A stretch of 64,000 nucleotides of DNA from Nitrososphaeraceae archaeon (GCA_016782315.1 JADDOQ010000001.1:12737-76736); one strand, 5' to 3'; shown: positions 5,835 to 48,111, counted from the first letter of the stretch. The notes: generated by a model not told the origin, from the letters alone. Made by a program: numbers and translations.

Positions 5835-7409
5835 ATGGTATCTGGCAAAAGAATTGTTTTAACTGCTGATCGTAGCTTAATGACAAACTATCGGGGTAAT
5901 TTCCTTTATGGCTTTATCGCTTGTGGCCCTTACGAGCTTGTTCCTGAATTTGTTTTTGACAAACTTTTTTGCCCTAGTGTTGAGACAGTGAAAAGTACAG
6001 GCGAGATAAAAGTTGCTCAATGCGGACTCCGCAGAATAGAAAGCGCCCTTCTTCAGGAGTACCCTAAAAATGATATTTTTCTGGCCCATCCTGAAATGCT
6101 TGATAAATGTATAGGGCCCGAGACAAAGGTTGTAGGTATTAACGTGATGGATCCTCTGGGAATGGCTCCTGTCACTACCACTATGTCACCTGAAAAACTG
6201 TCTTATGTGGCAATGAAGTTTAAGAAAATGTGTGCTTCAATAATACAGTTAAAGAAAAAATATGACTTTAAGGTCGTAGTTGGAGGTAATGGATCGTGGG
6301 AATTGGCAAAGCCTGAGAGAATGAGGATTCATGGGATAGATACCGTTGTTATTGGGGAGGCTGACGAACTGGCACTTGACCTTTTCCATGACTTGGAAGC
6401 AGGTGATGCCCCTGAGCTATTGCATACCTTTGTCAGGAACATTGAGAACATTCCCACAATCAAAGGCCCAACGATAAATTCTTTAATTGAGGCTATGCGT
6501 GGCTGCGGAAGGGGATGTGACTTTTGCGATGTCAACAAACGCTCCAAAAAGGACATACCATTGTCAAGACTGCAGGAAGAAGCCAAAATAAACCTCAAAT
6601 ACGGATTTGATTCTATTTGGCTTCAATCAGATGAAATGTTACTATATGGGTGTGATAACAAAGACTTTGTTCCAAATCAGGATGCAATTCTTGACGTTTG
6701 GAAAGGGTTAAAGTCTATCGGGGCAAATTTCATAGGCACAACTCACATGACACTGTCCGCTGTTGCTTCGTCTCCGGATTTGATTGAAAAAATATCTCAG
6801 GTTAATGATATGGAAAATAATGGCAGATGGCTAGCAACTAACTTGGGTGTGGAAACTGTCGCTCCAAGAATGGTAAAAAAACACCTGGGTGTTAAAACCA
6901 AGCCATTTCAACCTGAAGAGTGGGGTTCGGTTGTAAGGGAAGGGTGCAAGATTCTCAATCGTAATCACTGGTTTCCCGCATTGACACTGATAATCGGTTG
7001 GCCAGATGAAACCCCTGATGAGACACAATATACTATTGATTTGATACAGGACTTTAAACAAATGGAAATGAGGGGTCTGGTGGCGCCATTGCTGTATCAG
7101 GATTTTTCTGAGAGAAATTCAATGCATTTTGGTAATCTCAATGAGTCGCAATTTGCACTGTTTTGGACATGCTGGCAGCATAACCTTAGGGTAATTGACA
7201 ATATCATTCCGATTATTATTAGAAATAAAACATACGGTCCTGCAATGAAGGTGTTTATGGCCATGTTGATAAAAGCAGGAACCTGGGCTATTATGAAATA
7301 CCTGCGCGGATTATCTAAGGGTCTCTTTGATGGTAAACCAGCAGAGGATGTTGTTGCGAAATATGTCAAACCCCGCTCTGTTACCGCACCGTTGCCATCA
7401 AAGCTGTGA
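5835..7409 (+). CDS. COG1032-type radical SAM protein with N-terminal B12-binding-like domain; GDGT ring synthase (Grs)-like paralogue 1
   Basis: CxxxCxxC (CGRGCDFC); N-terminal IVLTADRSLM..Y, GLRRIESAL and MDPLGMAP motifs. Grs-family resemblance is from recall of the family, not a search. Confidence 0.8.
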   Translation: MVSGKRIVLTADRSLMTNYRGNFLYGFIACGPYELVPEFVFDKLFCPSVETVKSTGEIKVAQCGLRRIESALLQEYPKNDIFLAHPEMLDKCIGPETKVVGINVMDPLGMAPVTTTMSPEKLSYVAMKFKKMCASIIQLKKKYDFKVVVGGNGSWELAKPERMRIHGIDTVVIGEADELALDLFHDLEAGDAPELLHTFVRNIENIPTIKGPTINSLIEAMRGCGRGCDFCDVNKRSKKDIPLSRLQEEAKINLKYGFDSIWLQSDEMLLYGCDNKDFVPNQDAILDVWKGLKSIGANFIGTTHMTLSAVASSPDLIEKISQVNDMENNGRWLATNLGVETVAPRMVKKHLGVKTKPFQPEEWGSVVREGCKILNRNHWFPALTLIIGWPDETPDETQYTIDLIQDFKQMEMRGLVAPLLYQDFSERNSMHFGNLNESQFALFWTCWQHNLRVIDNIIPIIIRNKTYGPAMKVFMAMLIKAGTWAIMKYLRGLSKGLFDGKPAEDVVAKYVKPRSVTAPLPSKL

Positions 7410-7504
7410 TTTTATACGAGTAAACTAAACTCGTTTTTCAGTTAAACCAAGGGAAAATTGCGGAAATTCCCAACAATTAAACATGATAAAATAGGATTTC
7501 ATTA

Positions 7505-7843
7505 TTATTGTTGCTGCCTGTTTAATTCGCTTAAAGCTGCATCGGCTAGTGTGTCTCTTTGAGGGGTAATTACTATGAAATAGTTCTTATCTGCTCTCTC
7601 CATTGCCGTTACTAGCTTGTGTTTTTTTGTGGATATGTCAAACTCGTACATACCGCGCTCTAGCTTGCCTTTTGTGTATATCATCAATAAAACGTCTCCT
7701 GAAAGGGGCGTAATCGGTACCATGGAGAAAACATGATCTTTATATGAACTTATGGGAAGCACTTGTTTCATATACGGTGCAACAGAAACCAAATAAATTA
7801 AAACATCTTCTATGGTCTCAAATTCTTCATACTCAAATTTCAT
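7505..7843 (-). CDS. Conserved hypothetical protein (112 aa)
   Basis: Clean ORF with ATG start and natural composition; co-oriented with fpr. Confidence 0.75.
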   Translation of the reverse strand: MKFEYEEFETIEDVLIYLVSVAPYMKQVLPISSYKDHVFSMVPITPLSGDVLLMIYTKGKLERGMYEFDISTKKHKLVTAMERADKNYFIVITPQRDTLADAALSELNRQQQ

Positions 7844-7900
7844 TTAAATTATTAACTATAGCAAGGATAAATAAACTTATAACAAAAATAAAATAAGGAA

Positions 7901-8743
7901 TCAGCCGTAAGATTCGAATTTTACATCAAAAGAGCCGTCTTTTCTCTTTTTCCTTTCAGTAACAAAACCTTTTGGCACAAGGGAGTCCAACACCCCATCA
8001 ACCGTTCCTTGCCATCCACAAACATAAAACGAGGTGTTTTCTGGTGTTATGTTTTCTCCAACCAATTCCTCAAGTGGTGATTTGTCATTGCCCGCCTTTG
8101 GTCTTAGGAATGTTTCTACTCTTCCTTTATGTCCGCTCCATGATCTGTTAAACCATTCTTGGGGCCTGCTTATGCTGGCCCTATACTGAAAGTTCCATTT
8201 GTCCCTTCCTTTGTCGATGCTTTCGCTCTCCAGTTCCGTTAATAGATCTCTATAGCTTAATTCATCAACATAACTAGCTCCGTGCAGTACTATAATTTCC
8301 CTTTTACTTTCGTTCTTTTTTAGGTGCAGAGAATATGAAATAAATGGGGCAAGGCCTGTGCCTCCACCAATCAATACCAATCTTCTGTTATCTGGCTCAC
8401 CGGAAGGCATTTTTTCGTTGATTGTAAATATTCCTGTGGGTTTGACCCAAAATATCTCGTCTCCCTCTTTTTTATCAAACATCTGTGTGGTTAGTCTTCC
8501 CGGAACTGGTTTCTTTACCCATCTTATGATTAACTCAAAATATTTTTTTTGATGGGGTGGCGATGCAATGGAGTATGCTCTTCTAACTGTTTTACCTTCA
8601 CTAGGAACATTTACACCAAGAGTTACAAATTGTCCTGGCTTAAAGTCGGGAACCTCGCCTTCATTTGGCTTGATGTGAAAAATAGCCAGGTCCTCCTTTA
8701 ATACACTAATGTATGATATTGTTGCCTTATTGTCAACTACCAT
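7901..8743 (-). CDS. fpr: Ferredoxin--NADP+ reductase (bacterial-type FNR)
   Basis: RRAYSIAS (FAD), GGGTGLAPF and YVCG (NADP) motifs, C-terminal FESYG. Confidence 0.9.
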   Translation of the reverse strand: MVVDNKATISYISVLKEDLAIFHIKPNEGEVPDFKPGQFVTLGVNVPSEGKTVRRAYSIASPPHQKKYFELIIRWVKKPVPGRLTTQMFDKKEGDEIFWVKPTGIFTINEKMPSGEPDNRRLVLIGGGTGLAPFISYSLHLKKNESKREIIVLHGASYVDELSYRDLLTELESESIDKGRDKWNFQYRASISRPQEWFNRSWSGHKGRVETFLRPKAGNDKSPLEELVGENITPENTSFYVCGWQGTVDGVLDSLVPKGFVTERKKRKDGSFDVKFESYG

Positions 8744-8978
8744 GATACTCTGTGTTTTAAGCCGAGTCAGTTAAATATTTTGTTCTAGTATTATAAAATA
8801 TCTATTTCAATTCCATAATTTTTACATTATAAACGCCAAAATAAAATATTTGTAAGAATATTGAAATATATTCAAAATAAATTGTAAATATTTGTGATTT
8901 ATGCACTATTGCTAAATGGCCAAAAATTGTTAATGTTTTTATGGATTGTAACCATGTAAACTGGAGTGCTTTTTTTGG

Positions 8979-9110
8979 TCATTTGTATTTCTTCATGATG
9001 TTGTAATATGGAGAAGCTTTATGTCTTTCTATGCATTTTTGACACATGGATTTATCTCCATATTTTCTGTGGCATTGGCAATCACAGATAGATTTTACAT
9101 TCGATTCCAA
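8979..9110 (-). CDS. Small Cys/His-rich putative metal-binding protein (43 aa; below the ORF-track cutoff)
   Basis: Hand translation MESNVKSICDCQCHRKYGDKSMCQKCIERHKASPYYNIMKKYK*; TTG start with a TATA-like TTATATTT about 25-30 nt upstream. Confidence 0.6.
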   Translation of the reverse strand: MESNVKSICDCQCHRKYGDKSMCQKCIERHKASPYYNIMKKYK

Positions 9111-9206
9111 ATGATGATAATGGTAGATTGATTAAATATAATGGTTTTTTATTTTTTTTGTTGGATTAAAAGATTTATAATCCCTATATAGGGCATTTTT
9201 TTTGAA

Positions 9207-9782
9207 ATGATCAATAGCCTAGCAAATAGCATTATCTCAAATGTGGTTTTATCATCCAAACCCTGCTCAAAACTGTTGGAAAGCGATGGGATTTCCTCTA
9301 AAGCATTTACATTGAGGAGTTTTGATGGCCGGAAATTGATTAGCCTTAAAGACGTGAGGACATTAAAAAATAGTGTTCCTCGTTTAGGAACAGCTATAAA
9401 CATAGTCAAGAACCTTGACGAATATCTTTACATAGTTTGCAATTACGTTCCCAATATCAATGACAGTAATTTCTTTAAGATTAGATTCCAAAAAATACGC
9501 GTATTGATCCATTTGCTATTCAGCAGGCTTTCAAAAATTCTCTCAGAGGCCACAAACCCGAATGACCTAAACGAATGGATTGGTGAGTCCAACTCGCTGC
9601 TGGTGGAGACATCGGATCTTGTTTTGGAGTATCGTGATTCTTTGAGGAATGAGAAAAATGGCCAGTCAACTGAAAACTTTGAGCAAAAGGTTAAACTCAA
9701 GAGGGATTATTTTAGCTACTTTGGCATGAAGGAGGAAAGCATGGATGTTGCTCTTTATTCCATTTATGGCATAGTTGTTTGA
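9207..9782 (+). CDS. Hypothetical helical protein (191 aa)
   Basis: Long ORF with no recognisable motif; its stop overlaps the bcp 3' end convergently. Confidence 0.65.
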   Translation: MINSLANSIISNVVLSSKPCSKLLESDGISSKAFTLRSFDGRKLISLKDVRTLKNSVPRLGTAINIVKNLDEYLYIVCNYVPNINDSNFFKIRFQKIRVLIHLLFSRLSKILSEATNPNDLNEWIGESNSLLVETSDLVLEYRDSLRNEKNGQSTENFEQKVKLKRDYFSYFGMKEESMDVALYSIYGIVV

Positions 9783-10297
9783 TTGCGTTGAATCTTGTCT
9801 TTTCCTGTAAAGTATTCCAAGATCTCTTTGCTGTGCCCTTCTGGTTTGACTTTGTTAAATATTTTTACTATTTTCCCGGTTTTATCTAGCAAGAAGGTTG
9901 ATCTATTCGTGCCATAATATTCCTTACCCATAAACCTTTTCAGCCCATATGTTCCGTATTTTTTGGATATTGCGTTGTTTGTGTCTGATGACAGCATGTA
10001 GGGTATTCCCATTTTTTCTCTGAATTTTAGATGCGATTCTTCAGAATCGGGACTTATGCCAATCACCTCAATATCGTTTTCCTTGAACTTTTGATAGTCT
10101 TTAGTAAACTCTTCTGCCTCAATTGTACATCCGGGGGTAAAATCTTTAGGGTAAAAATAGATTACTATGTTTTTCTTCCCTATCATTTCATCAATCTCAT
10201 GCTTATTGCCTTTGGTATCAAAAAAGCCAAAACTGGGCGGTTTTTCTCCTTCTCTGATTAGGGAGCCGTTTGTAGCAGGTTCATTTGATTCAGCCAT
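9764..10297 (-). CDS. bcp: Peroxiredoxin, BCP/PrxQ family (single Cys)
   Basis: YFYPKDFTPGCTIEA peroxidatic motif, GISPD, and RSTFLLD. Confidence 0.92.
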   Translation of the reverse strand: MAESNEPATNGSLIREGEKPPSFGFFDTKGNKHEIDEMIGKKNIVIYFYPKDFTPGCTIEAEEFTKDYQKFKENDIEVIGISPDSEESHLKFREKMGIPYMLSSDTNNAISKKYGTYGLKRFMGKEYYGTNRSTFLLDKTGKIVKIFNKVKPEGHSKEILEYFTGKDKIQRNQTTMP

Positions 10298-10376
10298 GAT
10301 GACATTCTATTGTAAACAAACAATATTTTCTTTTCCTTCTTTGATTTTCAGATTATGGTGCAAAAAAATTGCATTA

Positions 10377-11384
10377 TTATCCAAACACAAATGTGTAAAA
10401 ACAAAAATTATTTGACCTTGGGATTATTTCCACTTTGTGTGTTTCTGTATTTTTTGTTTTTACTATGTTGTATATAAAAGGCCATGTAGTTTCAATATAG
10501 CTTATCTCGCCATTTGTTTTGATGTGACTGCCAAATTGTCCTTCACTTAGGTATTTGCCATCCAGTCTAATTTCTGCAATTGCCGGTTTGCTATCGTCTG
10601 GCCCTACTATGACGTTCACATTTGATGCCTTGTCGTATTTGAAAATTATTGCTGGGTCTTTTTCTTTGTAATCCAGAGATGATTTTACCCTTTCTTTATC
10701 CCATCTCCATTTGCCCCTCAAATAGACATTGTTCTCCAAAATAATGCTTGGTTCTGCAAGTATGTTGTAATCATTTGTCTTTAGTTTTTGATTATTTCCA
10801 AATCTCCTGATTCTGGAGTACCCTAGGCAAATTTCTGGAGCCATGCCAACAAAATGCATACCATAAACTTTGGCGATTTCGTTTTCTTCTGGTCCTTCAT
10901 GGTTTTTTTGTGGATATTCATCATTACTATACGAAATGTCCAGTAAATCTGATATGGCCTCTTCAAATTCACTTAGATTGCCGTACCCTGGATGTTCATA
11001 CCTGACAAATCCTTCCCTATCAATCAAAACATGTTTTGGCCAATATGAGTTTCCATACTCTTCCCAAGTTTTGTTTTTTGTGTCAAACCCAGTAATGTAC
11101 CCATCTAGGCCTAAAGCCGAAATAGCTCTTTTTGTGTTATTGACATCCTTTGCAAATTCGTACTCTGAGGAGTGTATTGGTATCACTATCAACCCTTTAT
11201 CTCCATATTTTTTCTTTATTTTGTCCATAGTCGGAAGTGTCCTCAAGCAATAAACACAGGTATAGGTCCAAAAGTCTAATAGAATCACTTTACCCTTAAA
11301 ATCATTGATAGAATAATCCAAGCCATCACTCCAGACTTCTATTTCTTTAAAATCTGCCGCAGGAAACGCCGGTATGATGTTCAT
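10377..11384 (-). CDS. Thioredoxin-like redoxin with DipZ-like C-terminal domain
   Basis: LLDFWTYTCVYC, HSSEYEF, YWPKHVLIDREG, PEICLGY and C-terminal YTFVFG. Confidence 0.85.
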   Translation of the reverse strand: MNIIPAFPAADFKEIEVWSDGLDYSINDFKGKVILLDFWTYTCVYCLRTLPTMDKIKKKYGDKGLIVIPIHSSEYEFAKDVNNTKRAISALGLDGYITGFDTKNKTWEEYGNSYWPKHVLIDREGFVRYEHPGYGNLSEFEEAISDLLDISYSNDEYPQKNHEGPEENEIAKVYGMHFVGMAPEICLGYSRIRRFGNNQKLKTNDYNILAEPSIILENNVYLRGKWRWDKERVKSSLDYKEKDPAIIFKYDKASNVNVIVGPDDSKPAIAEIRLDGKYLSEGQFGSHIKTNGEISYIETTWPFIYNIVKTKNTETHKVEIIPRSNNFCFYTFVFG

Positions 11385-11459
11385 TCATTGAGTTTATGGC
11401 CCCATGATAACTTTATATCTTTTCTTCCATGGCTTGTTGTGGTGTGATGACATAAAGAG

Positions 11460-11544
11460 TGCGGGAGATGGGATTTGAACCCACGAACCCCTAAGGGATA
11501 AGGCCCTCAACCTTACGCCTTTGGCCAAGCTGGGCGACTCCCGC
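11460..11544 (-). tRNA. tRNA-Leu(GAG)
   Basis: Reverse complement GCGGGAG...TAAGG-TTGAGGG-CCTTA...long variable arm...GTGGG-TTCAAAT-CCCAT-CTCCCGC-A; no intron. Confidence 0.95.
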
Positions 11545-11646
11545 TTCAGTTTACTTTTGTTTTAGGTTTAATTTGAATATTCCCAATATTGTTGCTTGCT
11601 ATCAAAATTTGAATGGTTTTTATGTAGGCGATTATTTTTTTTAACT

Positions 11647-11886
11647 ATGCTTGTTCCTGTAAGATGTTTTACTTGTGGTAAATTGATTGCTCATATTTAT
11701 AATGAATATATATCTCGAGTCAAGTTGGGCGAAGAGCCAAACAATGTGATGGATTCTTTGAAAATAACAAGATATTGTTGCAGACGGATGTTTATCTCAA
11801 GTGTGGAAACAATATATCAGGTGATTCCATATTATGAAGCCTTGAGAAAACGCAGGACGGAGATACAATCTGAAATGGAAGGTTAG
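11647..11886 (+). CDS. rpoN: RNA polymerase subunit Rpo10 (N)
   Basis: MLVPVRCFTCGK...RYCCRRM signature; start set to ATG 11647. Confidence 0.97.
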   Translation: MLVPVRCFTCGKLIAHIYNEYISRVKLGEEPNNVMDSLKITRYCCRRMFISSVETIYQVIPYYEALRKRRTEIQSEMEG

Positions 11887-11888
11887 AC

Positions 11889-13142: not shown

Positions 13143-13143
13143 A

Positions 13144-14852: not shown

Positions 14853-14858
14853 TGCCAT

Positions 14859-15923
14859 TTGGATATGGTTGTCTCACACAAAGTAACCTCGACATCTCCG
14901 GGAAAAGCAATACTTTTTGGGGAACATTTTGTAGTCTATGGCTATTCGTCACTTATTTTTGCCATTGATAAAAGATTTAGGGTTGTATTGGAATATGGTG
15001 ATTCTGATAGAAATTGCAGCAAGATAAGGGTTACCTCAAATTTAGGATTCAGTGCTGAGATAGTTGATTCAAAAATCATTATGTCCAATAATGATCAATC
15101 ATATGTTGATGTTGTCAACAACCTACACAAAATAATCAGTTATTTGCTAGAAGGCATGCATAATGACGGTACTGTTGCAAATAAACAAAGCATGAATGTT
15201 CATATAGACTCTGAAATTCCCGTAGGTGGTGGACTTGGGTCATCGTCTGCGTTTTGTGTCGCATTAACTGGGGCACTATATTACAATTCTGATAACAAAC
15301 CAGGCAAAAAATTCATTTGCGATAAGTCTATTGGGGTGGAAAGGGTAATAAATAATAGCACATCTGGTGTTGATTGCAGTATCTGTACATATGGCGGCCT
15401 TGGCGTTTATAATAAATCACATGGATTTAGAAAAATCGGGGCTGATATGCATGATTTTCCGTTTCTAGTTATAGATACGGGTATTCCACACAATACATCT
15501 GAAATGGTGAATAAGGTAAAAAGAGTCAAAGAAAATGATGCTGAATATTTTTCCATTTTGTGCAATCAGTATGAAAGCATTTTTAATCTTTCATTAAAGT
15601 CTCTGAAAACTAAAAACTTGGAAAGTTTGGGAACCTTGATGGATGAGAACCATTCTATTTTAAAGAAACTATCGTTATCTAACCATGTTATAGAAAAGGT
15701 CATAGAAATCTGCCAATCCGGCGGAACTTATGGCACCAAAATCACAGGTTCTGGCGGTGGGGGATGTTTGTTATCATTGGTAGATAAAAAAGACAAAACT
15801 CTGGTAAAGAGGCTGTTGAAAAAACTTGATGAACTCAAACTAAACCATTTTTTTGTGAATCCAGACGATGGCGGTATTAAAATTGAGATTGAAACCGCAT
15901 CCAATGCAAACAAAATCAGATGA
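14859..15923 (+). CDS. mvk: Mevalonate kinase
   Basis: PGKAILFGEHFVVYG, IPVGGGLGSSSA, SGVD and KITGSGGGG GHMP motifs. Confidence 0.93.
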   Translation: MDMVVSHKVTSTSPGKAILFGEHFVVYGYSSLIFAIDKRFRVVLEYGDSDRNCSKIRVTSNLGFSAEIVDSKIIMSNNDQSYVDVVNNLHKIISYLLEGMHNDGTVANKQSMNVHIDSEIPVGGGLGSSSAFCVALTGALYYNSDNKPGKKFICDKSIGVERVINNSTSGVDCSICTYGGLGVYNKSHGFRKIGADMHDFPFLVIDTGIPHNTSEMVNKVKRVKENDAEYFSILCNQYESIFNLSLKSLKTKNLESLGTLMDENHSILKKLSLSNHVIEKVIEICQSGGTYGTKITGSGGGGCLLSLVDKKDKTLVKRLLKKLDELKLNHFFVNPDDGGIKIEIETASNANKIR

Positions 15924-16007: not shown

Positions 16008-16841
16008 TTGAATAGTACAAAGAATGGCGGTCTTTTAATTATTAAACTGGGTGGCTCTATAATTACATTCAAGGATAAACCTCTTACACCTAATTATCAC
16101 GCTATTGAAAAGTTGTCTGGTATCATTAAAGAACTAAAAAAACGTTATAAAATTATCATTGTACACGGTGGGGGTTCTTTTGGCCACTATTGGTCAGTAA
16201 AATATGACATGCATACCAAACCTTCTATATATCCCGATGAGGGAGTATCACGCGTCAATGAGTCCATGACAAAATTAAATCATATAATTGTTGAAAAATT
16301 CATTTCTAGAGACCTAAAACCATTTACTATTCACGCATCGTCTTTTGTTTTTAACAACCTGGAATGTAGTAGGGATCGAATAATGGATGTGACGGATATG
16401 ATAGAAAATAATGATATCATTCCAATAACCTATGGTGATGTAGTGCACACAACAAAAGGAAATTTCTCAATTCTATCTGGCGACGCATTAATGAAAATCT
16501 TGTCGATTAATCTAAATCCGCTGCTTTCAATTTTCACAACAAATGTGGATGGTATCTATGATAGTCTTGGCAGCGGCAAAATAATATCAAATATGCTCGT
16601 AAGTGAAAACAATGAACTATTAACCAATACCGATACCAATATCGAATTTACAAACACGCCTTTCGACGTTACAGGCGGCATGAAAAGAAAATTATCAGAA
16701 TCGATACATATCGTAAAAAATGGAATTCCAGTTTATTTGATAAATGGGTTTTACCCTGAAAGAATTGTGGATATAGTTAACGGAGGAGATTTTATTGGCA
16801 CATCGATAAAATTGCAGCAGGGGGAAAAGGGTGATAATTGA
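16008..16841 (+). CDS. ipk: Isopentenyl phosphate kinase
   Basis: IKLGGSIITFK, VHGGGSFGH, SGD and DVTGGM; between mvk and fni. Confidence 0.92.
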   Translation: MNSTKNGGLLIIKLGGSIITFKDKPLTPNYHAIEKLSGIIKELKKRYKIIIVHGGGSFGHYWSVKYDMHTKPSIYPDEGVSRVNESMTKLNHIIVEKFISRDLKPFTIHASSFVFNNLECSRDRIMDVTDMIENNDIIPITYGDVVHTTKGNFSILSGDALMKILSINLNPLLSIFTTNVDGIYDSLGSGKIISNMLVSENNELLTNTDTNIEFTNTPFDVTGGMKRKLSESIHIVKNGIPVYLINGFYPERIVDIVNGGDFIGTSIKLQQGEKGDN

Positions 16842-17975
16842 TTGTCTTTTTTTGATGAAGAAAATACAGGTCAAGATAATATGAATCTACCTGATGAAAA
16901 TGAAGATTTTGTAGAACAAATCAAAAAACGTAAAAGAGAGGGAATAGAGATTCCTTTAAAGGAAAACACCCAGGGGATGAAAAACTCCACCTACCTGGAA
17001 TATGTCAAACTTTTTCATAATGCGTTGCCTGAATTAGATTTTGAGGAAATTGATATTTCCACCACTTTCTTGGGAAAATCTTTTTCTGCTCCGTTAATAA
17101 TTGACTCAATGACTGGGGGGACCGATGAGGCCTTCCTAATAAACAAAAGATTGGGGCAGGTTGCAGAAAAATATGGGCTTGGTATGGGTTTAGGAAGCCA
17201 AAGAGCTGGATTAAAAAGTGAAAAACTAGTTGAAAGCTATTCCATTGCTAGAGACGTCGCACCCAACGCATTTTTGATAGCAAACATAGGTGGAGCGCAA
17301 TTATCGGAGGGATTGTCCACTTCAGATATCCTAAAAATAATAAAGATGATTGATGCAAATGCATTAGCTATTCATCTTAATCCGTTGCAAGAGCTGATTC
17401 AACCTGAGGGGGAGCCTCGATTTAAAGGGATTTTGAAAAAAATAGCCATCTTGGCAAATGACATCGAAATACCAATCATTGTAAAAGAGGTGGGTTCTGG
17501 CATATCGGCAGATGTGGCATTGCGGCTAGAAAGTTCGGGAATTAAATCAATAAACGTTGCAGGCTCTGGAGGCACAAGTTGGGCAGGTATAGAAAAAATA
17601 AGGGCTGATCAGCAGAACGAGCATATCAAATCTAGGTTGGGCGAGCTTTTTTGGGACTGGGGCATTCCCACCGCATTAAGTATATTGCTGGTTTCAAAAT
17701 CTGTTAGAATGCCGATTATAGCGTCAGGGGGGTTAAGAAATGGTTTGGAAATCGCAAAATGCTTAATACTGGGATCGGATCTATGTGCAATGGCCTTTCC
17801 TTTTTTGAAGAAAGCTTCCCAATCGGAAGAAGAGTTGGAGAGATTTACCAAGCTAATCTTGACTGAAATAAAGTCCACAATGTTCTTATTGGGCGCAGGA
17901 AACATAAAATCTCTAAAAAATACAAGGTATATATTGACAGATAAATTAGCTAGTGTAATAGGTAATTATGAGTAG
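16842..17975 (+). CDS. fni: Type 2 isopentenyl-diphosphate isomerase
   Basis: SMTGG, GSQR, HLNPLQE, KEVGSG, GGTSW and ASGG. Confidence 0.95.
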   Translation: MSFFDEENTGQDNMNLPDENEDFVEQIKKRKREGIEIPLKENTQGMKNSTYLEYVKLFHNALPELDFEEIDISTTFLGKSFSAPLIIDSMTGGTDEAFLINKRLGQVAEKYGLGMGLGSQRAGLKSEKLVESYSIARDVAPNAFLIANIGGAQLSEGLSTSDILKIIKMIDANALAIHLNPLQELIQPEGEPRFKGILKKIAILANDIEIPIIVKEVGSGISADVALRLESSGIKSINVAGSGGTSWAGIEKIRADQQNEHIKSRLGELFWDWGIPTALSILLVSKSVRMPIIASGGLRNGLEIAKCLILGSDLCAMAFPFLKKASQSEEELERFTKLILTEIKSTMFLLGAGNIKSLKNTRYILTDKLASVIGNYE

Positions 17976-18978
17976 TGCAGAAGAGATAAAAACTGAAATT
18001 AATTTTATTGCTTCAAAAATAAATCAGTTTATTCTTTCTAATGTTTCTGGTAGTCCAACACATCTTTATGATGCATCTTTGCATTATATCAAAAGCGGTG
18101 GAAAAAGGATCCGTCCTTTTCTTTCTGTTAAATCTTGTCAACTGTTTGGAGGGGTTATGGAAACAGTAATACCATATGCCTCCTCTGTCGAATTGGTTCA
18201 TAATTTTACTTTAATCCACGATGACATTATGGATAACGATAACGTGAGACATAGCGTATCTTCCGTACATAAGCAATTTGGAATTCCAGTTGCTATCTTA
18301 TCTGGTGACGTTCTGTTTTCTAAAGCCTTTCAGATTATCTCTCTTTATGGAGAAAGGTTTGGATTACCTAGTGAAACTTTGATAAAAATGATGAACCTCT
18401 TATCTTCATCTTGCATAGAAATATGTGAAGGTCAGGCACTAGACATAAAAATGTCAAATGATGAGAATTTTTCTTCTAAGGATGATTATATAAAAATGAT
18501 AGAAAAAAAAACAGCTTCTTTGTTTAAAGTCTCCTGCGAAATTGGAGCGTTATCTTCCTCAAATTGCAGTCAAATGGATATCGAAAACCTTTCAAATTAT
18601 GGCAAGAAAATCGGAATAGCGTTTCAATTGATAGATGATTTGATAGGTATTTACGGTGATCCGAAGATAACGGGAAAAGCCGTAGGCAATGATATCCGAG
18701 AGGGAAAAAAAACATTTCCTATTCTATTGGCAATTCAAAGCCTTGATTCTGATGATAAAAACAAACTGAAAGATATTTTCGGGGAAAAAAATGCAAGTGA
18801 TGAATCTATCAAAGAAATTGTAGACAAAATAGCTTTGGTCGGCATAGATAAGGATGTTCGTTCTGTTGCCCAGGATTACATTGAAGATGCATTTGATATA
18901 TTGGATAAGTATGATGCTTCAAACCCACTTTTGTCTTTGAAAAATTCAGCTAAATATATAGTCGAAAGAGGGTTATAA
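17968..18978 (+). CDS. idsA: Geranylgeranyl diphosphate synthase
   Basis: GGKRIRP, LIHDDIMD (FARM), KTASLF and FQLIDD (SARM). Confidence 0.93.
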   Translation: MSSAEEIKTEINFIASKINQFILSNVSGSPTHLYDASLHYIKSGGKRIRPFLSVKSCQLFGGVMETVIPYASSVELVHNFTLIHDDIMDNDNVRHSVSSVHKQFGIPVAILSGDVLFSKAFQIISLYGERFGLPSETLIKMMNLLSSSCIEICEGQALDIKMSNDENFSSKDDYIKMIEKKTASLFKVSCEIGALSSSNCSQMDIENLSNYGKKIGIAFQLIDDLIGIYGDPKITGKAVGNDIREGKKTFPILLAIQSLDSDDKNKLKDIFGEKNASDESIKEIVDKIALVGIDKDVRSVAQDYIEDAFDILDKYDASNPLLSLKNSAKYIVERGL

Positions 18979-22194: not shown

Positions 22195-23436
22195 ATGTAT
22201 AATAACCCATTTACCCTAAGTTCTAGTGATTTATTGAAGTTTGATATTGCTATTGTAGGTGGGGGCCCTGCTGGCCTTTCGGCTGCTTATTCTGCGTCAA
22301 AAAAAGGTGCAAAAGTTGTGCTTTTTGAAAAAGATCCTTCATTTGGACATAATGTTAGAACCAGTGGTGTTAGTTGGATAAAAGAGATGGAGAAACTTGG
22401 GATATCAAATGAATATTACAACCCAATCAAAAATTTCTCATTTATATCTCCCAACAATGAAGCAAACATGCTTGGCAATGATTACACTGCATGTGTACTT
22501 GATATAAAAAAAACCTTTCAGTTCTTGGCTATAAAAGCTGCTGCGGAAGGAACTACCTTGTTTGTAAAAAGTAATGTTTTTGATATAAAAAGAAATGCTG
22601 ATGGAAGGATCAATGGATTAAAGGTTTTTACACCAAAAGGAGTTGCTGATATAGACGCATCTTTGATAATCGATGCAAGCGGTTTCAATAGCTTTATTTC
22701 TAGAAAACTAGGTTATGTTTCTCTTTGGCAAAGATATGGGGTTGGCGCGGAATACGAATGTTACTGTGACAGCATAAACCAGGACACTCTGCACTTAATG
22801 GTTGGTCAAAAATATTCAGAAGCTGGATACGCATGGATTTTCCCACTATCAAGTAATCGCGTAAGAATAGGCGTTGGGATAGGGAGGCCTGAATCCACTG
22901 TTGACCCGTTGATTAAATTGAATAAAATACTGGAAAGTAACTTGTATCCCTTAAACAAACTCGGAAAAATTCAACCAATTGAGGTTCATTATGGGATGAT
23001 ACCTAATGAGGGTTTAAGAAAAAGCTGTGTTTATGATGGGCTAATGATGATAGGCGATACCGCAGGCCAGGCAAACCCTTTGGTTTTGGAGGGAATACGT
23101 TACGCAATTGAATTTGGGCAATTAGCCGGAAGACTAGGTGCTGACTCCCTTCAGTTTGCATCAACCCGTGATTCTCTAATAGAATATGAATATGTTTGCA
23201 GAAAAACCCTTGAAAAAAAAATTCAGTCTGCATTAAAAGTACAGTCAAGATGGCTATCCCTCTCTGACACTGATTGGGATAAGGAGATTGATATCATTAA
23301 AGACTTGACAATGGGTGAATTCTTGGATTTCATTAAATCTGATTTTTCAAACTATAAAATGATGAAACTTGCATTGAATCATCCAAAACTGGCAGCAAGG
23401 CAACTATTTGATTTGGTTGTAAACAAACATAAATAA
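22195..23436 (+). CDS. Geranylgeranyl reductase family (digeranylgeranylglycerophospholipid reductase-like)
   Basis: GGGPAG, DASG, YAWIFP and GDTAGQANPLVLEGIRYA. Confidence 0.88.
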   Translation: MYNNPFTLSSSDLLKFDIAIVGGGPAGLSAAYSASKKGAKVVLFEKDPSFGHNVRTSGVSWIKEMEKLGISNEYYNPIKNFSFISPNNEANMLGNDYTACVLDIKKTFQFLAIKAAAEGTTLFVKSNVFDIKRNADGRINGLKVFTPKGVADIDASLIIDASGFNSFISRKLGYVSLWQRYGVGAEYECYCDSINQDTLHLMVGQKYSEAGYAWIFPLSSNRVRIGVGIGRPESTVDPLIKLNKILESNLYPLNKLGKIQPIEVHYGMIPNEGLRKSCVYDGLMMIGDTAGQANPLVLEGIRYAIEFGQLAGRLGADSLQFASTRDSLIEYEYVCRKTLEKKIQSALKVQSRWLSLSDTDWDKEIDIIKDLTMGEFLDFIKSDFSNYKMMKLALNHPKLAARQLFDLVVNKHK

Positions 23437-41992: not shown

Positions 41993-42705
41993 TCCAAATC
42001 TTTTAACTCAATTGTTACAATGTCCCCATTTTTTAAACTTGCTGTTTCTTTAATGCATACTGGAGAGATAACTTCAACTAAGCTGTTGTTATGGTGTGTT
42101 CTTTCTAAAAGCAGTATGGATGATTCTATTTCCATCTTTTCATAATTTTCTTTGTTTCCGGGAATTAAAATTGTTGGATAGCATTTAACCCATCCAAATG
42201 TTCTGTTTTCATCCTTAAAGCCGTGAATGTAGATGGATGGATAGCTTGTTATTTCTCTTTTGGTGTCTTTATAAATTTGTTCTTCCAGTTTTACGTTTAA
42301 AGTGCCCGGAAAGGGTTCGTATCCTAATTTTTCCCTAAATTGATCTTTGTACCCTTTCTTTGACATGTAGTATGAACCCTCTCCCATACCCGTAACAATT
42401 TTTCCTTTGAAAATTACTCTTTTACCTCTAGAGCTATCTATTGCTGTTTTCATCATACTATGCAGTTCTTTTATGACCTCAAATCCTTCCTGTGTTACTT
42501 TTATTTTGAATTTCTTATTGTTTTTAATTCTTTCAATTAAGTTGTCTTTTTCTAATTCAATCAATACCTTTGAAGCTGTTTGTTGAGAGCGTTGGATGAC
42601 TTTACTTATTTGACCACTCGTTATTTCAGTATGGGTTTCCTTGGCACCTAATGACAGTAAGTGAGCCAAGGTTAAAAAATGAAAATAATTTAAATTACCT
42701 TCCAT
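41989..42705 (-). CDS. ribK: CTP-dependent riboflavin kinase with N-terminal HTH
   Basis: SQQTAS HTH, GMGEGSYY, PFPGTLN, RTHH and EVISP. Confidence 0.93.
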   Translation of the reverse strand: MEGNLNYFHFLTLAHLLSLGAKETHTEITSGQISKVIQRSQQTASKVLIELEKDNLIERIKNNKKFKIKVTQEGFEVIKELHSMMKTAIDSSRGKRVIFKGKIVTGMGEGSYYMSKKGYKDQFREKLGYEPFPGTLNVKLEEQIYKDTKREITSYPSIYIHGFKDENRTFGWVKCYPTILIPGNKENYEKMEIESSILLLERTHHNNSLVEVISPVCIKETASLKNGDIVTIELKDLD

Positions 42706-44038
42706 TATTGCTATGGTTAATCAAGCCTATATCCGAAAAGGTTTTTATGCGAATTTCTGAAATTGGTTTTTTTATGCTGCTTGTTCTATGCCCTATTATA
42801 TATTGAATCCCTGCTTTGTTAGCCGCTTCTATTAATCTCTGGGTAATTATCCCATCTAAAACCAATAGTTTTCCACCTTGTGAATTTGATATTCTTTTTA
42901 CAATGTCAGAAACAGGTACTTTTATCATTGCTTTCATTGAATTGTCAAAGATTACTGCTTCTAAAGTTTCGTTGATTTCTGGGAATATTTGCTTAATGGT
43001 TGAAATGATTACCTCATCTTCTTTTATGGGTGATATATTTTTGTCTATGTTCGCGTATGTGATTTTATTATTGTTATCTTCTACAGACGCTTTGTTTTGC
43101 TGATTGTTGATGGGTTTGGTGTTCATGTCAATCATGTTTATTTGATTTTGGTTTGTTGTGGATTGCACATTGTTTCGTGTCTGAAACTGGTTTTCTGAGT
43201 TTGAACTATTAGGCGAGTTACTATAAATGTTCTTAATGTATTGTTCCACATCCTTTAGTATTTCTGAAATCTCTAAAGGAGTGCACTCTTCGACTTCCCT
43301 ACCTGCTGGTGCTCGGTATACTCTGTCTATTTTTACTAATCCTTGCAACTCTTTTAATATTAAATCACCGGCTCTATCTCCATCAATAAAAGCAACAACT
43401 CTTTTACCATGTGTTAGTTTTAATATTGTTTCGTCAATCTTTGCACCTTCAATTGCTATTGAATTTTCAAATCCTGCTCTGAGGAGATTTATTACGTCTG
43501 CTCTTCCTTCTACCAAAATAATCCAATCAGAATCAAATACACCTACTCCGCATGCTAATTGAGCCTTGCCAAAAGTAGTTAGTCTGCCTGGTTTGCTTGC
43601 GTCATATACATCCTTTAACATTTCCTCTCCTTCGCTTATTGTTTTTGTTGCCCATTCTTGTACGATTTTTTTTGCTCTATCTACTATGATTTTCTTTTTG
43701 ATTGCCCTTATGTCATCAATTCCTATTAATGAGAATTTGGCTTGAAAAGGACCAACTTTGTCAATACTTTCGATTGCAGCAGCTATTAGAGCGGCCGTAG
43801 AAATGTCGGTGCTCATGGGGATTAAAGCATCGCCTTTTGCGGAATTCGACTTGGAGTCTACATTAACTTCGATCCTTCCAACTTTGGATACTTTTTGTAG
43901 TTCATTCAGGTTCATTTCTGGTCCCAACAAGCCTTCCGTTTGCCCAAAAATAGCGCCAATAATATCGGCCTTTTCTACTAAACCATCAACATCAAATTTT
44001 AACTTTACATGATACTTAACAATGCCGGTATTTGGCAT
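42695..44038 (-). CDS. dnaG: Archaeal DnaG primase-like protein
   Basis: GVVEKAD-type GLVEKADIIGAIFGQTEGLLG, ILVEGRADV and DGDRAG (Toprim); start set to MPNTG at ATG 44038. Confidence 0.95.
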   Translation of the reverse strand: MPNTGIVKYHVKLKFDVDGLVEKADIIGAIFGQTEGLLGPEMNLNELQKVSKVGRIEVNVDSKSNSAKGDALIPMSTDISTAALIAAAIESIDKVGPFQAKFSLIGIDDIRAIKKKIIVDRAKKIVQEWATKTISEGEEMLKDVYDASKPGRLTTFGKAQLACGVGVFDSDWIILVEGRADVINLLRAGFENSIAIEGAKIDETILKLTHGKRVVAFIDGDRAGDLILKELQGLVKIDRVYRAPAGREVEECTPLEISEILKDVEQYIKNIYSNSPNSSNSENQFQTRNNVQSTTNQNQINMIDMNTKPINNQQNKASVEDNNNKITYANIDKNISPIKEDEVIISTIKQIFPEINETLEAVIFDNSMKAMIKVPVSDIVKRISNSQGGKLLVLDGIITQRLIEAANKAGIQYIIGHRTSSIKKPISEIRIKTFSDIGLINHSNNGR

Positions 44039-44208
44039 CTTTATTACCTCGTTATTAATTTTATTTATCATATTTAGATGATGTATTTAATACATTACCT
44101 ACCTTCATTAATCTTTTTATTTTATGATTAATTAAATTGTTTTTCTACAAATTTAAATAAATTTTATGTTTATATTTGTATATTCATTATTTTTTATATT
44201 AGTGCTAT

Positions 44209-44667
44209 TTATTTTATCTTTTCTGATATGGTTATATAAAATGATTTCATTTCTTCAATTTTTCTTATTCTTCCCTTGGTGATTTTTAGCAATTTTTTTT
44301 TATAATACAGATCAATAAATTTGCCATTGGTCTGTGACAATATTTTTTTTGTAATTGCCTTTCCTTTTTGGTCTGCGTCTAAAAGTAATATTAGTTTTTT
44401 ATAGTTTGCAGAACAATAGTCCACAAAATCAGTTGTACCTTTAAAGTTATGATATGCTTTTAGGTTACCTTTAAACCCTAAATAATTCAAGGCATCAATA
44501 TCTTTTTTGCCCTCTACAACAACTATTGAATTCTTGAGCGACTCATTATTTAATGAGCTTATAAAGTTGTTTAATTCTTCTATTGAAGTTTCTCTATATT
44601 CTTTCTTCATGGATAATGACTTAGTTACGAGCCAACTCTCTTCATCTTTGAGCCGCATCTTGGACAA
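44209..44667 (-). CDS. Small Toprim-domain protein (start uncertain)
   Basis: VVVEGKKD and LLLDADQKG Toprim motifs. Confidence 0.85.
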   Translation of the reverse strand: MSKMRLKDEESWLVTKSLSMKKEYRETSIEELNNFISSLNNESLKNSIVVVEGKKDIDALNYLGFKGNLKAYHNFKGTTDFVDYCSANYKKLILLLDADQKGKAITKKILSQTNGKFIDLYYKKKLLKITKGRIRKIEEMKSFYITISEKIK

Positions 44668-44927
44668 GAAGATTGATCGTGTTTAGTGCCACAATTCATA
44701 CAATAATAACTAATTGAACTTCCTGAGCCGCCAAAAACAGAACCAGACATTCCCATTTTTTTCATGGTTCTATTTCTTATGTAATAACTTAGCATAATGA
44801 ATACAATTATTATAATTGGTAATGAGAAGGGAAAAGGTATTAAGAATGAAATACCCAAACTTATTCCTAAAGAAATTCCTATCCACATTAATTGCTGTGA
44901 TAAAAATTGCCTGTTATTGCCTATCAC
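44625..44927 (-). CDS. Small membrane protein with C-terminal zinc ribbon
   Basis: Two TM helices, then CMNCG...CPRCG. Confidence 0.8.
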   Translation of the reverse strand: MIGNNRQFLSQQLMWIGISLGISLGISFLIPFPFSLPIIIIVFIMLSYYIRNRTMKKMGMSGSVFGGSGSSISYYCMNCGTKHDQSSCPRCGSKMKRVGS

Positions 44928-45003
44928 TGTATATCATTGATACTAATAAAAAACATTATATTTAAAATCTTTCCTCTTTTCTAAATTTTATTTTTAACTG
45001 TGT

Positions 45004-45330
45004 TCAATTATATTCTGCATAATATTTATAGCGTTTCTCAACTTCTTTGTTTTTTCCGTCTAATACGATTTGAATCTGTTGTTGTAATTGATTCATGGAG
45101 TAGTTTTTAAATTTCACTCCATCATCTGTATCTGGAAACTTGGATAATGTATTCTCAAAATCCTTCATAAAGGTGACTACCATCTCCCTAAACTCATCTT
45201 TTGTTGGGCTTTTGTGGTTATTTACTTTAAACCATGAAACAGCTAATTGTGATGAGTAGATTTTCGCTAAATCTTCTGTTAGCCTGTCAATTTCAAAAAA
45301 ATCCGCCATTATCTCGTAAAAACTAGGCAA
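45004..45330 (-). CDS. Conserved hypothetical protein (108 aa)
   Basis: Clean helical ORF, TTG start. Confidence 0.7.
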   Translation of the reverse strand: MPSFYEIMADFFEIDRLTEDLAKIYSSQLAVSWFKVNNHKSPTKDEFREMVVTFMKDFENTLSKFPDTDDGVKFKNYSMNQLQQQIQIVLDGKNKEVEKRYKYYAEYN

Positions 45331-46088
45331 TCCTTATTAAAATTTCTATTGTATTCTTAGTTAAGGCCTGTCATATTGGAATTATGTACCTTAAATAACC
45401 TGTATTTCTTTTGTATGTATATTAAAAAATACCATACACACAAATATGTTGGCTAGATTGCATTTGGATTAATACTATGCATGTCTTGTTGAAATATTTT
45501 AAAATCTCCAATATATTTTGTCAAAATAAGTCACATTTCCATTGGGTGTCGATACTCAAGCATAAACATTATGAGGTATCGTGCAACAAAAAGAGGGTTT
45601 TTGAACCTATGGTTAGATGCACTATTTTAAGGTGGTACTAGTACTTGGGCTTGAAGTTGCATTTGACTATGTTAATAAATAACAATGTAGTGAGGATAAC
45701 AAAGAATCTAAATTTGTTATTATGACATAGTTTTTTCCATTTGGCATTGTCAAATATTATGGTGAATGTTCCAATTCAGCCGATTCGAAAAGGCTACTAC
45801 ATTCGCCTCTAGTTTGTGCAGTTTATTTGAATAAATGCGTCATTCGCCTTGTTTGAGAAAAGCATTGTTGATTGAACTATTCAATATCCGAAAGATAGGC
45901 TGAAAGTATTGGTTATTGCTTTTTTTGCATAGGTGGTAAATGCAAATTAAAGAAAGCAAATAGCGGTTTAATCTATTTAATTCTATCAAAATAAAGAAGA
46001 TGCACAAAAGTTAAAAGAGCCTCTCCACGCTCTACCTGGAGAATGCGAATAGAAAGATAAAAATGGGTTTGAATATTCTCAACAGATA

Positions 46089-46256
46089 ATGCCTATAACA
46101 GATGTAATAAAAAAACAAATAGCTCAAAAAAGACGACTATTTTTCAAGATATGTTTTAAGTGTGGAGCTAAAAACCCTATTGGATCAGATAGATGTAGAA
46201 AATGTCATGGAAACCAGATGCGTTTAAAAAACAGAACATTGGGTGCAAAAAAATAG
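46089..46256 (+). CDS. rpl40e: 50S ribosomal protein eL40 (55 aa; missed by the ORF track)
   Basis: Hand translation MPITDVIKKQIAQKRRLFFKICFKCGAKNPIGSDRCRKCHGNQMRLKNRTLGAKK*. Confidence 0.95.
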   Translation: MPITDVIKKQIAQKRRLFFKICFKCGAKNPIGSDRCRKCHGNQMRLKNRTLGAKK

Positions 46257-46285
46257 TTTTTTTTAACCATGCCGCAACAATTTGC

Positions 46286-46329
46286 TTAATTCTTTATTAA
46301 TTCTTTATTAATTCTTTATTAATTCTTTT
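46286..46329. repeat. Tandem repeat, 4 x 11 bp (TTAATTCTTTA)
   Basis: Three perfect copies and one with a last-base mismatch; no spacers. Confidence 0.95.
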
Positions 46330-46386
46330 CAAATAAGAAACCTTTAATTATCTTTTTCTATTCATCAATCTAAGATCACGATTAGT

Positions 46387-48111
46387 ATGAAATACCCAAA
46401 AGTTGTTTTGACTGCTGACAGAACTTTAATGTCTCCTTATAGAGGAATCTCCCTTGCATCTTTTTTTGGCTGTGCCCCAGCTCTTGATATAAACCGTAGT
46501 CCTGATTCCTTTTGGTATAAAGTTCTAGGTAATCAGGTAACTCCTAAATTACTTTTTGATTTTATTTGCAATCCAATTGGCCATGTAAATGGACGGGCTA
46601 GTTATGCTCCTTATGGCCTAAGAAAGATTGAAGCGTCATTGTTGAGAGATGGTTATTCAAAGGAAGATGTGGTCGTTGCCCATCCTGATTTTGTTGAAAA
46701 GTTTATAGGCCCTGAAACTGAATTTGTAGGAACTTATGAAATGGATCCTTTAGGAATGGGTCCAGTTACCATGACTTTTACTTATGGGCGAAAACAAATG
46801 TCCTATGATGAATATTATAATAGGGATTTACATCGTAAAATTAACAACGCAAAGGAAAAAAACAAGAGCAAAGCCAAGGTTGTGGTTGGGGCTTCAGGCA
46901 CTTGGCAATATAATTATGACCCTGCAAAAATCGAAGAATACGGACTATATGCTATTATGGAGGGTGACCTCGGTGGTATTGGACCTGAAATTGATGGAGC
47001 TGGAAGAAGCTTTTTTGATGCTATAATAAATAATGAATTAGAAACAGCAAATCCTTTTAAAAAGTCGAAATTTAGAGTTGAAGTTAAAGAATTTAACAGA
47101 AAAGATAGGAAATACCATGGACGATTTATCCATTATTCTGACGAGCCTAATGTAGACGAAATACCAAATATTGTTAATCCCAGCATGCACGGGATGATTG
47201 AAGTAATGAGGGGATGCGGTAGGGGCTGTAAATTTTGCGATGTTACATTGAGACAATTAAGATATTATCCTGTGGAAAAGGTACAAAAAGAAATAGAAGT
47301 CAATATGAAGTATGGTGGCTTAAAAAATGCCTGGATCCAAAGTGATGATATTTTTGTTTATGGCTTAAATCCAAGGACAACAAAAAACATGCAACCTAAT
47401 AGGGAGGCTCTTGAAGAACTTTTCAAAGGGATAATGGAAACGGGTATTGAGCATACAAATCCTACACATGGAACGCTCGCAGGTGCAATTGCCGATGAAA
47501 AGTTAATTCCAAGCCTTTCTAAAATTATAAAATCCGGTCCGGGAAACCATATTGGTGTACAATGTGGTTTGGAAACGGGGAGTATTAGGTTAATTGGTAA
47601 ATATGCCGATAGGAAACTTGCACCTTATAAACCATCTGAATGGCACTGGGTAGTTAAAGAAGGTGTGAAAACCCTTAACGAATACTATTGGGTGCCTGCA
47701 TTTACCCTTATTATGGGACTTGATAATGATGAAAGTGCAGATGACAGCTGGGAAACAATTCAGTTAATTCATCAATTAGAAAAAGAGCAACCTGACTCTA
47801 AATTTACTGTTACACCATTAACCTTTGTCCCGATTGGGTTGCTTGAGAAGTCCGAATTTTTTGATATAGGAAATACCATGGATCCCGCAAAATTAGGCGT
47901 CATGTATAAAACATGGCAACACAATTTTAAATATGCGATCCACAAATTTATGCATAAGGTAGGTCAGAACGATCCTTTAAAGAAATACTTTTTTGCTTCT
48001 TTGGCAAAGACATTGGGTGGAGTTCCATTAAACGCAATGGAAAAGTATGCTAGGCGTAAAAGCCCAGAGCATGAAAGGGTGATCGAAAAAATCAAAGCGC
48101 AATACGCTTGA
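46387..48111 (+). CDS. COG1032-type radical SAM protein; Grs-like paralogue 2
   Basis: CGRGCKFC; VVLTADRTLMSPY, APYGLRKIEASL and MDPLGMGP; clearly homologous to 5835-7409. Confidence 0.8.
   Translation: MKYPKVVLTADRTLMSPYRGISLASFFGCAPALDINRSPDSFWYKVLGNQVTPKLLFDFICNPIGHVNGRASYAPYGLRKIEASLLRDGYSKEDVVVAHPDFVEKFIGPETEFVGTYEMDPLGMGPVTMTFTYGRKQMSYDEYYNRDLHRKINNAKEKNKSKAKVVVGASGTWQYNYDPAKIEEYGLYAIMEGDLGGIGPEIDGAGRSFFDAIINNELETANPFKKSKFRVEVKEFNRKDRKYHGRFIHYSDEPNVDEIPNIVNPSMHGMIEVMRGCGRGCKFCDVTLRQLRYYPVEKVQKEIEVNMKYGGLKNAWIQSDDIFVYGLNPRTTKNMQPNREALEELFKGIMETGIEHTNPTHGTLAGAIADEKLIPSLSKIIKSGPGNHIGVQCGLETGSIRLIGKYADRKLAPYKPSEWHWVVKEGVKTLNEYYWVPAFTLIMGLDNDESADDSWETIQLIHQLEKEQPDSKFTVTPLTFVPIGLLEKSEFFDIGNTMDPAKLGVMYKTWQHNFKYAIHKFMHKVGQNDPLKKYFFASLAKTLGGVPLNAMEKYARRKSPEHERVIEKIKAQYA

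Follow-up and report, generated by a model that had tools for sequence, protein, structure and literature searches.

Which enzymes close the rings of crenarchaeol is the question raised by two genes in a 64,000-nucleotide stretch of Nitrososphaeraceae archaeon DNA (GCA_016782315.1 JADDOQ010000001.1:12737-76736), hereafter the window. Crenarchaeol is the signature lipid of ammonia-oxidizing archaea (AOA) and part of the TEX86 palaeothermometer. The two genes, open reading frame (ORF) A, encoding 524 amino acids (aa), and ORF B, encoding 574 aa, specify radical S-adenosylmethionine (SAM) proteins related to GrsA and GrsB, the Sulfolobus enzymes that form cyclopentane rings in glycerol dialkyl glycerol tetraethers (GDGTs). 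An initial annotation made from the sequence alone had proposed that they divide ring formation between them. We found that A and B are ancient paralogues within the Grs family in the broad sense, that they are orthologous to neither GrsA nor GrsB, and that nearly all AOA retain both. One of them may form cyclopentane rings, and the other may close the cyclohexane ring of crenarchaeol.

The span from 5835 to 48111 consists of two separate genes lying 39 kb apart and is not a single feature. The ORF limits given in the initial annotation were exact, with both genes on the plus strand, and the four motifs it had listed, LTADR(S/T)LM, GLR(R/K)IE, MDPLGM, and MRGCGRGC(D/K)FC, were found in both proteins. 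A and B are full-length paralogues whose similarity is far beyond chance; BLASTP aligned nearly their entire length (~545 columns) at 31% identity with an E-value of 2e-82. B is 50 aa longer than A. Each protein has a single CX3CX2C motif, and the three motif cysteines of A were 100% conserved in a 94-row alignment of the family. The Pfam Radical_SAM model (PF04055) scored 35.5 bits for A, above its cut-off of 29.5, and 25.3 bits for B, below it, while the Pfam B12-binding model was faint in A (E 0.18) and absent in B. The NCBIfam matches of the two proteins (TIGR04013, MiaB/RimO, and MgmA) were all far under their cut-offs, and no Grs model was among them. As B contains only 6 cysteines in total, an auxiliary iron-sulfur cluster in this protein is unlikely.

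The relation to the characterized enzymes was examined with the genome of Sulfolobus acidocaldarius (G264), which has two Grs-like genes, AAY79657.1 (at 0.20 Mb) and AAY80898.1 (at 1.35 Mb). The locations of the two are consistent with Saci_0240 (GrsB) and Saci_1585 (GrsA), respectively, as named in a review (PMC13459092). In full-length alignments, A and B were 26-30% identical to both proteins (E 1e-54 to 1e-69), A being nearer GrsB and B slightly nearer GrsA by BLAST. A profile built from A and B retrieved the S. acidocaldarius proteins GrsA and GrsB at E-values of 5e-54 and 1e-47, and nothing else in that genome scored better than 2e-12. Against 1.84 billion representative proteins, the same profile delimited a compact family of 200 clusters at E <= 1e-30.

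Phylogenies were inferred with FastTree (182 sequences) and IQ-TREE (LG+G4, 94 sequences), using a MiaB-like protein from contig C177 of the source genome as the outgroup; the outgroup is distant, and the backbone and root of the trees are unresolved. In both trees, A and B fell inside the Grs radiation, as the initial annotation had anticipated, together with the GrsA clade (support 97/69), the GrsB clade (100/99), and a C clade (99/99) that includes some additional AOA genes and a Vulcanisaeta gene, and they did not group with methylases. The "Grs/Gms clade" against which placement was to be judged does not exist, as Gms belongs to the SPASM/Twitch radical SAM enzymes (PMC11214058). The sequences around A formed one superclade (100/99) and those around B another (99/100), and the two were joined with a support of 92/99 in a group that also takes in other Nitrososphaeria and Caldarchaeia sequences. 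Approximately unbiased (AU) tests, for which the groups were defined after the first tree had been seen, rejected all four pairings with the Sulfolobus enzymes: A with GrsA (p 0.0003), B with GrsB (p 0.0014), A with GrsB (p 0.0003), and B with GrsA (p 0.007). Neither protein is thus an orthologue of GrsA, which forms the C-7 ring, or of GrsB, which forms the C-3 ring (all p <= 0.007).

Because A and B are sisters and these pairings were rejected, the duplication that produced them was separate from the one that produced GrsA and GrsB. It also predates AOA, since each paralogue has its own sister clades outside AOA (A3 for A; B2 and B3 for B). The description of A and B as Grs-like paralogues with a B12-type domain therefore stands, while any view of them as the counterparts of GrsA and GrsB does not; as they are non-orthologous, the names GrsA and GrsB are unjustified on this tree and should not be given to them by analogy. 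The stem branches leading to the two AOA orthogroups are long, at ~0.58 for B and ~0.5 for A when summed over two branches (IQ-TREE).

Three other identities were considered for A and B and rejected. Neither is a tetraether synthase (Tes), as no PDB match to 7tol was obtained at E <= 1 and the Tes model NF045702 gave no hit; the Tes of the source genome is encoded on contig C217 (E 1.9e-128 to GDGT-MAS 7tol). Neither is Gms, as SPASM/Twitch models did not match and a Cys-rich C-terminus is missing. Neither is a MiaB/RimO methylthiotransferase, as their TIGR00089 scores, 36.8 and 25.5 bits, fall far short of the cut-off (251).

The source genome (2.5 Mb in 327 contigs) contains amoA, and the database orthologues of A and B, 93-96% identical to them, carry the names Candidatus Nitrosocosmicus or Nitrososphaeraceae; the host is a Candidatus Nitrosocosmicus-like soil AOA of the Nitrososphaeraceae. 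Among the 17 radical SAM matches in this genome, A and B alone proved Grs-like in tblastn. A, B, and amoA were each searched for in one set of 201 genomes from the class. An orthologue of A (74-96% identity) was present in every genome of the AOA order, being split or cut by a contig end in three. An orthologue of B (72-94% identity) was full-length in nearly all of them; none was found in G192 and G178, it was cut at a contig end in G121, and it was in two opposite-strand pieces in G193. amoA was detected in 135 of the 136 AOA-order genomes holding A, the exception (G194) being a fragmented assembly. G164, the only complete AOA-order genome lacking amoA, had no Grs-like gene at all, and class members outside AOA had only relatives with 35-42% identity. 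Between AOA families, A was 74-80% and B 72-77% identical, which indicates strong constraint. Most AOA carry exactly two Grs genes, A and B. Extra paralogues were found in thermophilic AOA (family f3), in family f5, and in G184, which we take to be Nitrososphaera gargensis. This is in line with a report that thermophilic Nitrososphaerales have many grs copies (10.1101/2022.08.15.504015).

Several irregularities were observed in individual genomes. Nitrosocaldaceae-like genomes have up to six Grs-family genes, and in thermophilic or deep-branching AOA, a B2-type gene and a C-clade gene stand in tandem on one strand (G116:C1:1110450-1113338, G166:C3:117627-120452, and G192:C17:14079-16904). G192 (family f5, genus g30; 97% complete, 130 contigs) contains amoA, A, an extra A2 gene, a B2 paralogue, and a C-clade gene, and its A has one internal TAG; its lack of B reflects either an assembly gap or a naturally B-less AOA. 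In the complete genome G193 (genus g10), residues 3-392 of B are encoded on the minus strand and residues 380-573 on the plus strand (G193:C1:1461737-1463985), owing to either an inversion that disrupted the gene or a local misassembly. In G184, a fragment of a SPASM-type radical SAM gene (the C300 family of the source genome) with an internal TGA lies directly upstream of the extra A2 Grs paralogue (G184:C1:2123540-2126144).

S. solfataricus has redundant grsB copies (10.1101/2022.08.15.504015), and A and B might likewise be C-7 cyclopentane synthases of redundant function, retained for regulatory reasons such as different expression with temperature or growth phase. However, their duplication is older than AOA, and they share only 31% identity while each retains 72-80% between AOA families, even in streamlined marine genomes of 1.1-1.7 Mb. 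As low mutual identity combined with strong retention argues for distinct, essential roles, we consider redundancy highly improbable.

AlphaFold2 models were used to examine the fold. The model of A had a predicted local distance difference test (pLDDT) score of 80.7 and a predicted template modelling (pTM) score of 0.84, with MgmA, MiaB, and TsrM as its best fold matches; that of B was of modest confidence (pLDDT 66, pTM 0.72) and best matched MgmA and TsrM. The cobalamin radical SAM enzymes MgmA (PDB 9ccb) and TsrM (PDB 6wtf) matched both domains of both models, and for MgmA the Foldseek E-values of the two models were 3e-14 and 5e-12 with target-normalized TM-scores of 0.64-0.65. The predicted architecture comprises an N-terminal Rossmann-like domain of the cobalamin type, a partial TIM barrel that carries one CX3CX2C [4Fe-4S] site, and long helices at the C-terminus. 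The CX3CX2C motif and the partial barrel place A and B in the radical SAM superfamily, and the models would assign them, at the level of fold, to class B, whose members have a cobalamin-binding domain. Cobalamin binding itself is putative, and two invariant residues of this domain are replaced in B.

The additional length of B lies in segments that were compared in an alignment of 23 family members, and conserved residues were assessed in the 94-row alignment. The insertion of ~35 aa before the radical SAM motif, modelled with strands at residues 230-238 and 241-249, also occurs in B3 proteins from Caldarchaeia and from Nitrososphaeria outside AOA, and a B3-type protein is the only Grs in five sampled Caldarchaeia genomes. 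As the non-AOA B3 clade shares it, this insertion is not the crenarchaeol-linked feature. The initial annotation had correctly described the longer paralogue as a 574-aa protein with an insertion before the SAM domain; its reading of that insertion as a possible sign of distinct activity is not upheld, given the same segment in non-AOA relatives. Two further segments of B are restricted to the AOA orthogroup. One is a 17-aa insert present in B of families f1, f2, and f3 and absent from B2, B3, A, GrsA, and GrsB; at its site, the AOA C-clade row has two extra residues and the V. distributa GrsA seven, neither of which can be aligned with the insert of B. The other is a remodelled segment after the GE motif of the Rossmann-like domain, and just upstream of it within this domain, a family-invariant Gly and Asp are replaced in B (G169A and D188Y). 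Fixed departures from family-conserved residues numbered nine in A, mostly conservative, and six in B, two of them at invariant positions, while the remaining core residues of the family (56 columns) were retained in both. The departures in B are suggestive, and not decisive, of a new function.

These changes could also be taken to mean that one or both paralogues act outside ring synthesis, in another radical modification, whether on isoprenoid lipids or on a different substrate, such as desaturation, methylation, or a hydroxy-GDGT or menaquinone step. The B12-type radical SAM relatives in archaeal lipid metabolism do include methylases and a desaturase (10.1101/2025.10.20.683597), B combines G169A and D188Y in the cofactor domain with inserts seen only in AOA, and the stems of both orthogroups are long. 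Against this stand the position of A and B inside the Grs radiation and apart from the methylases, a profile that strongly matches only GrsA and GrsB, and the retained family core; AOA also need at least one ring synthase, and most of their genomes offer no candidates for it besides A and B. A role outside ring formation thus appears quite improbable.

Earlier work credits AOA with at least two grs homologues, a single cyclopentane position, and a cyclohexyl ring still to be assigned (10.1101/2022.08.15.504015; PMC9385802; PMC11442133). As most AOA have two Grs genes and two ring types, one enzyme per ring type is the economical arrangement, and the AOA-wide presence of A and B fits what is expected of ring-forming enzymes in crenarchaeol producers. 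We therefore favor the reading in which one paralogue is responsible for the C-7 cyclopentane rings and the other for closure of crenarchaeol's cyclohexane ring, and we put its probability at about 0.45; the substrates and the split of labour are what we infer here. GrsA and GrsB have no auxiliary cluster, and cobalamin has been suggested to retain the first radical formed on the substrate between two SAM-dependent hydrogen abstractions (2026 review, PMC13459092). If A and B worked in the same style, each enzyme would cleave SAM twice, abstract hydrogen at a methyl branch and at a chain carbon in a biphytanyl chain that Tes has already linked, and then close the ring itself, with cobalamin probably holding the first radical.

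For the assignment of the two roles, we lean slightly to the B lineage as the one with the new activity, given its more radical stem-branch changes. The AOA B orthogroup would then be the cyclohexane-ring synthase, derived from a cyclopentane-forming enzyme of the B3 type. A burst of change at the origin of AOA (a stem of ~0.6 substitutions per site, two AOA-only inserts, and the replaced Gly and Asp) would have shifted the site of ring closure from C-7/C-10 to C-11/C-15, and A would make the cyclopentane rings, perhaps with an adjacent 112-aa protein. Taken as a specific claim, this assignment is unlikely, and the mirror assignment, with A closing the cyclohexane ring, fits the evidence almost as well.

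Several points weigh against giving each paralogue one ring type. No functional test of any AOA Grs homologue was found in the literature searched, and the activity is extrapolated over 26-30% identity to characterized enzymes of which A and B are not orthologues. The phyletic pattern cannot assign the ring types because both orthogroups are AOA-wide and have non-AOA sisters, and the lipids of the organisms with A3, B2, or B3 are uncharacterized (10.1101/2024.07.09.602736). No operon or neighbourhood link of A or B to lipid genes was found, and G192, although a 97%-complete AOA genome, has no B orthologue. There is, in addition, a third radical SAM protein with a matching distribution: a 293-aa protein on contig C237, outside the window, was single-copy in all 136 AOA-order genomes (54-85% identity) and was found neither in the amoA-less G164 nor in any class member outside AOA, which makes it a serious competitor for any chemistry particular to AOA. 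A 2026 proteomics study (PMC12974425) also proposes an additional radical SAM protein, Nmar_0217, for crenarchaeol.

The C237 protein is the best candidate for the cyclohexane step if A and B are both cyclopentane-only enzymes that have become sub-functionalized, for instance by ring order, by the biphytanyl chain or headgroup accepted, or by the stereochemistry of the cyclopentane beside the cyclohexane. It has a CX4CX2C-type motif, and its nearest NCBIfam models, PhpK/HpnJ and B12 radical SAM cores, were far under their cut-offs. However, closure of the cyclohexane ring is the same type of methyl-to-chain C-C coupling as in Grs chemistry, and the C237 protein has neither a B12-type nor an auxiliary-cluster domain to hold the first radical. 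Its distribution could be explained by many AOA-specific core functions besides lipids, and two universally kept Grs genes for one cyclopentane position would need an extra explanation. We consider this alternative somewhat unlikely and retain the division of the two ring types between A and B as the preferred reading.

Two SPASM/Twitch-like radical SAM genes of the source genome were also considered as ring-enzyme rivals and rejected, as they are patchy in AOA (38 and 62 of the 201 genomes). The second, at C216:6224-7171, is a PTO1314-like gene found only in AOA (62/201); Nitrosocosmicus genomes carry multiple copies of it (up to 4-5), and several of these contain stop codons.

The other features of the window and the C237 gene are collected with those of A and B in Table 1. 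The mvk-ipk-fni-GGPPS genes and the GGR noted in the initial annotation were all recovered with Pfam; they lie at least 7 kb from A and 23 kb from B and are not operonic with either. Housekeeping genes directly flank A and B (Nudix, FNR-like reductase, peroxiredoxins, enolase; primase-like Toprim proteins, TIM, FBPase). A and B are 39-76 kb apart within this genus and far apart in other AOA.

Across AOA, the only conserved neighbour of A is the 112-aa ORF, and B has none. This ORF had no match in Pfam, NCBIfam, or PDB. It was single-copy in 136 of 136 genomes of the AOA order holding A, whereas the amoA-less G164 and every non-AOA member of the class lacked it. In families f1 and f2, which are presumably Nitrososphaeraceae and Nitrosopumilaceae, 20-120 bp separate it from A, and it is non-adjacent in f3, f5, and G176. 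The 112-aa protein is a possible partner of A, which we offer as a lead only. The FNR-like oxidoreductase gene (FAD_binding_6 and NAD_binding_1) keeps its place near A only within Nitrososphaeraceae (81% identity in G184), which makes it improbable that this enzyme is a reductase dedicated to A.

Table 1. Coordinates of ORFs A and B, their segments, and other features discussed in the text (positions in the window unless a contig is given).
Feature	Coordinates	Strand	Basis or remark
ORF A, 524 aa, Grs-family radical SAM with B12-type N-domain, AOA A orthogroup	5835..7409	+	ORF call, Pfam, orthologues, AlphaFold2 model, tree
CX3CX2C radical SAM cluster motif of A (C224, C228, C231; CGRGCDFC)	6504..6527	+	Sequence reading
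112-aa ORF, tail-to-tail with A	7505..7843	-	Possible partner of A, lead only
FNR-like oxidoreductase	7901-8743	-	Two genes downstream of A
mvk	14859-15923		Pfam
ipk	16008-16841		Pfam
fni	16842-17975		Pfam
GGPPS	17968-18978		Pfam
GGR-like flavoprotein	22195-23436		Pfam
ORF B, 574 aa, Grs-family radical SAM with B12-type N-domain, AOA B orthogroup	46387..48111	+	ORF call, homology to A, orthologues, AlphaFold2 model, tree
17-aa insert of B, LDINRSPDSFWYKVLGN (residues 33-49), AOA B orthogroup only	46483..46533	+	23-member alignment
Remodelled segment of B after Rossmann-domain GE motif (residues 195-208), AOA B orthogroup-specific	46969..47010	+	Alignment
~35-aa insertion of B before radical SAM motif (residues 219-253)	47041..47145	+	Alignment; partly modelled beta-hairpin
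CX3CX2C motif of B (C277, C281, C284; CGRGCKFC)	47215..47238	+	Sequence reading
293-aa radical SAM protein, CX4CX2C-type motif GCSFNECSFC, without B12 domain	C237:134-1012	+	Outside the window

The existence of two Grs paralogues in AOA, with one as a candidate for the cyclohexane step, is real, ordinary, and already known (published 2019-2024). As reported in PMC8473941, Zeng et al. (2019) placed the AOA Grs homologues in a Thaumarchaeota clade apart. A cyclohexyl-ring role for one Grs homologue has been proposed in print (PMC9385802; 10.1101/2022.08.15.504015, section 4.3; PMC11442133), and the third of these studies defined the clusters GRS-A and GRS-X and found that 88% of AOA genomes hold a marker set including both clusters as well as amoA and accA. 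The cyclohexyl gene is still listed as unknown in a 2025 preprint. Two AOA Grs homologues have thus been discussed since 2019, and the window adds no new candidates; the division of labour between the paralogues, which the initial annotation put forward, is plausible and already in print. The present analysis adds the explicit rejection of orthology with GrsA and GrsB, the demotion of the large insertion, and two new leads, namely the AOA-specific C237 protein and the conserved 112-aa neighbour of A. Once the cyclohexane enzyme is identified, crenarchaeol production could be traced in genomes and metagenomes, which would help to date the origin of this lipid.

Among known enzymes, GrsA and GrsB resemble A and B in the Rossmann-like B12-type N-domain, the single CX3CX2C barrel, the C-terminal helices, and the lack of auxiliary-cluster cysteines, and the organisms make cyclized GDGTs in both cases. 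A and B differ in forming a superclade of their own (92/99), in the three extra segments of B, and in an activity that is predicted only. MgmA and TsrM have the same two-domain layout and are the best structural matches of both models, but they share only 12-15% sequence identity with A and B and are methylases of peptide or tryptophan substrates. Tes (GDGT-MAS, PDB 7tol) is a radical SAM enzyme that also joins inert lipid carbons by C-C bonds and supplies the substrate of the ring synthases; it has auxiliary clusters and a rubredoxin-like site, whereas A and B have neither. The closest comparison is with the published clusters GRS-A and GRS-X (PMC11442133), which are the same two orthogroups as A and B, being AOA-ubiquitous at about one copy each per genome and apart from the GrsA and GrsB of thermophiles. 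A and B of the window are their Nitrosocosmicus-type members and differ in nothing essential from the AOA Grs homologues already published.

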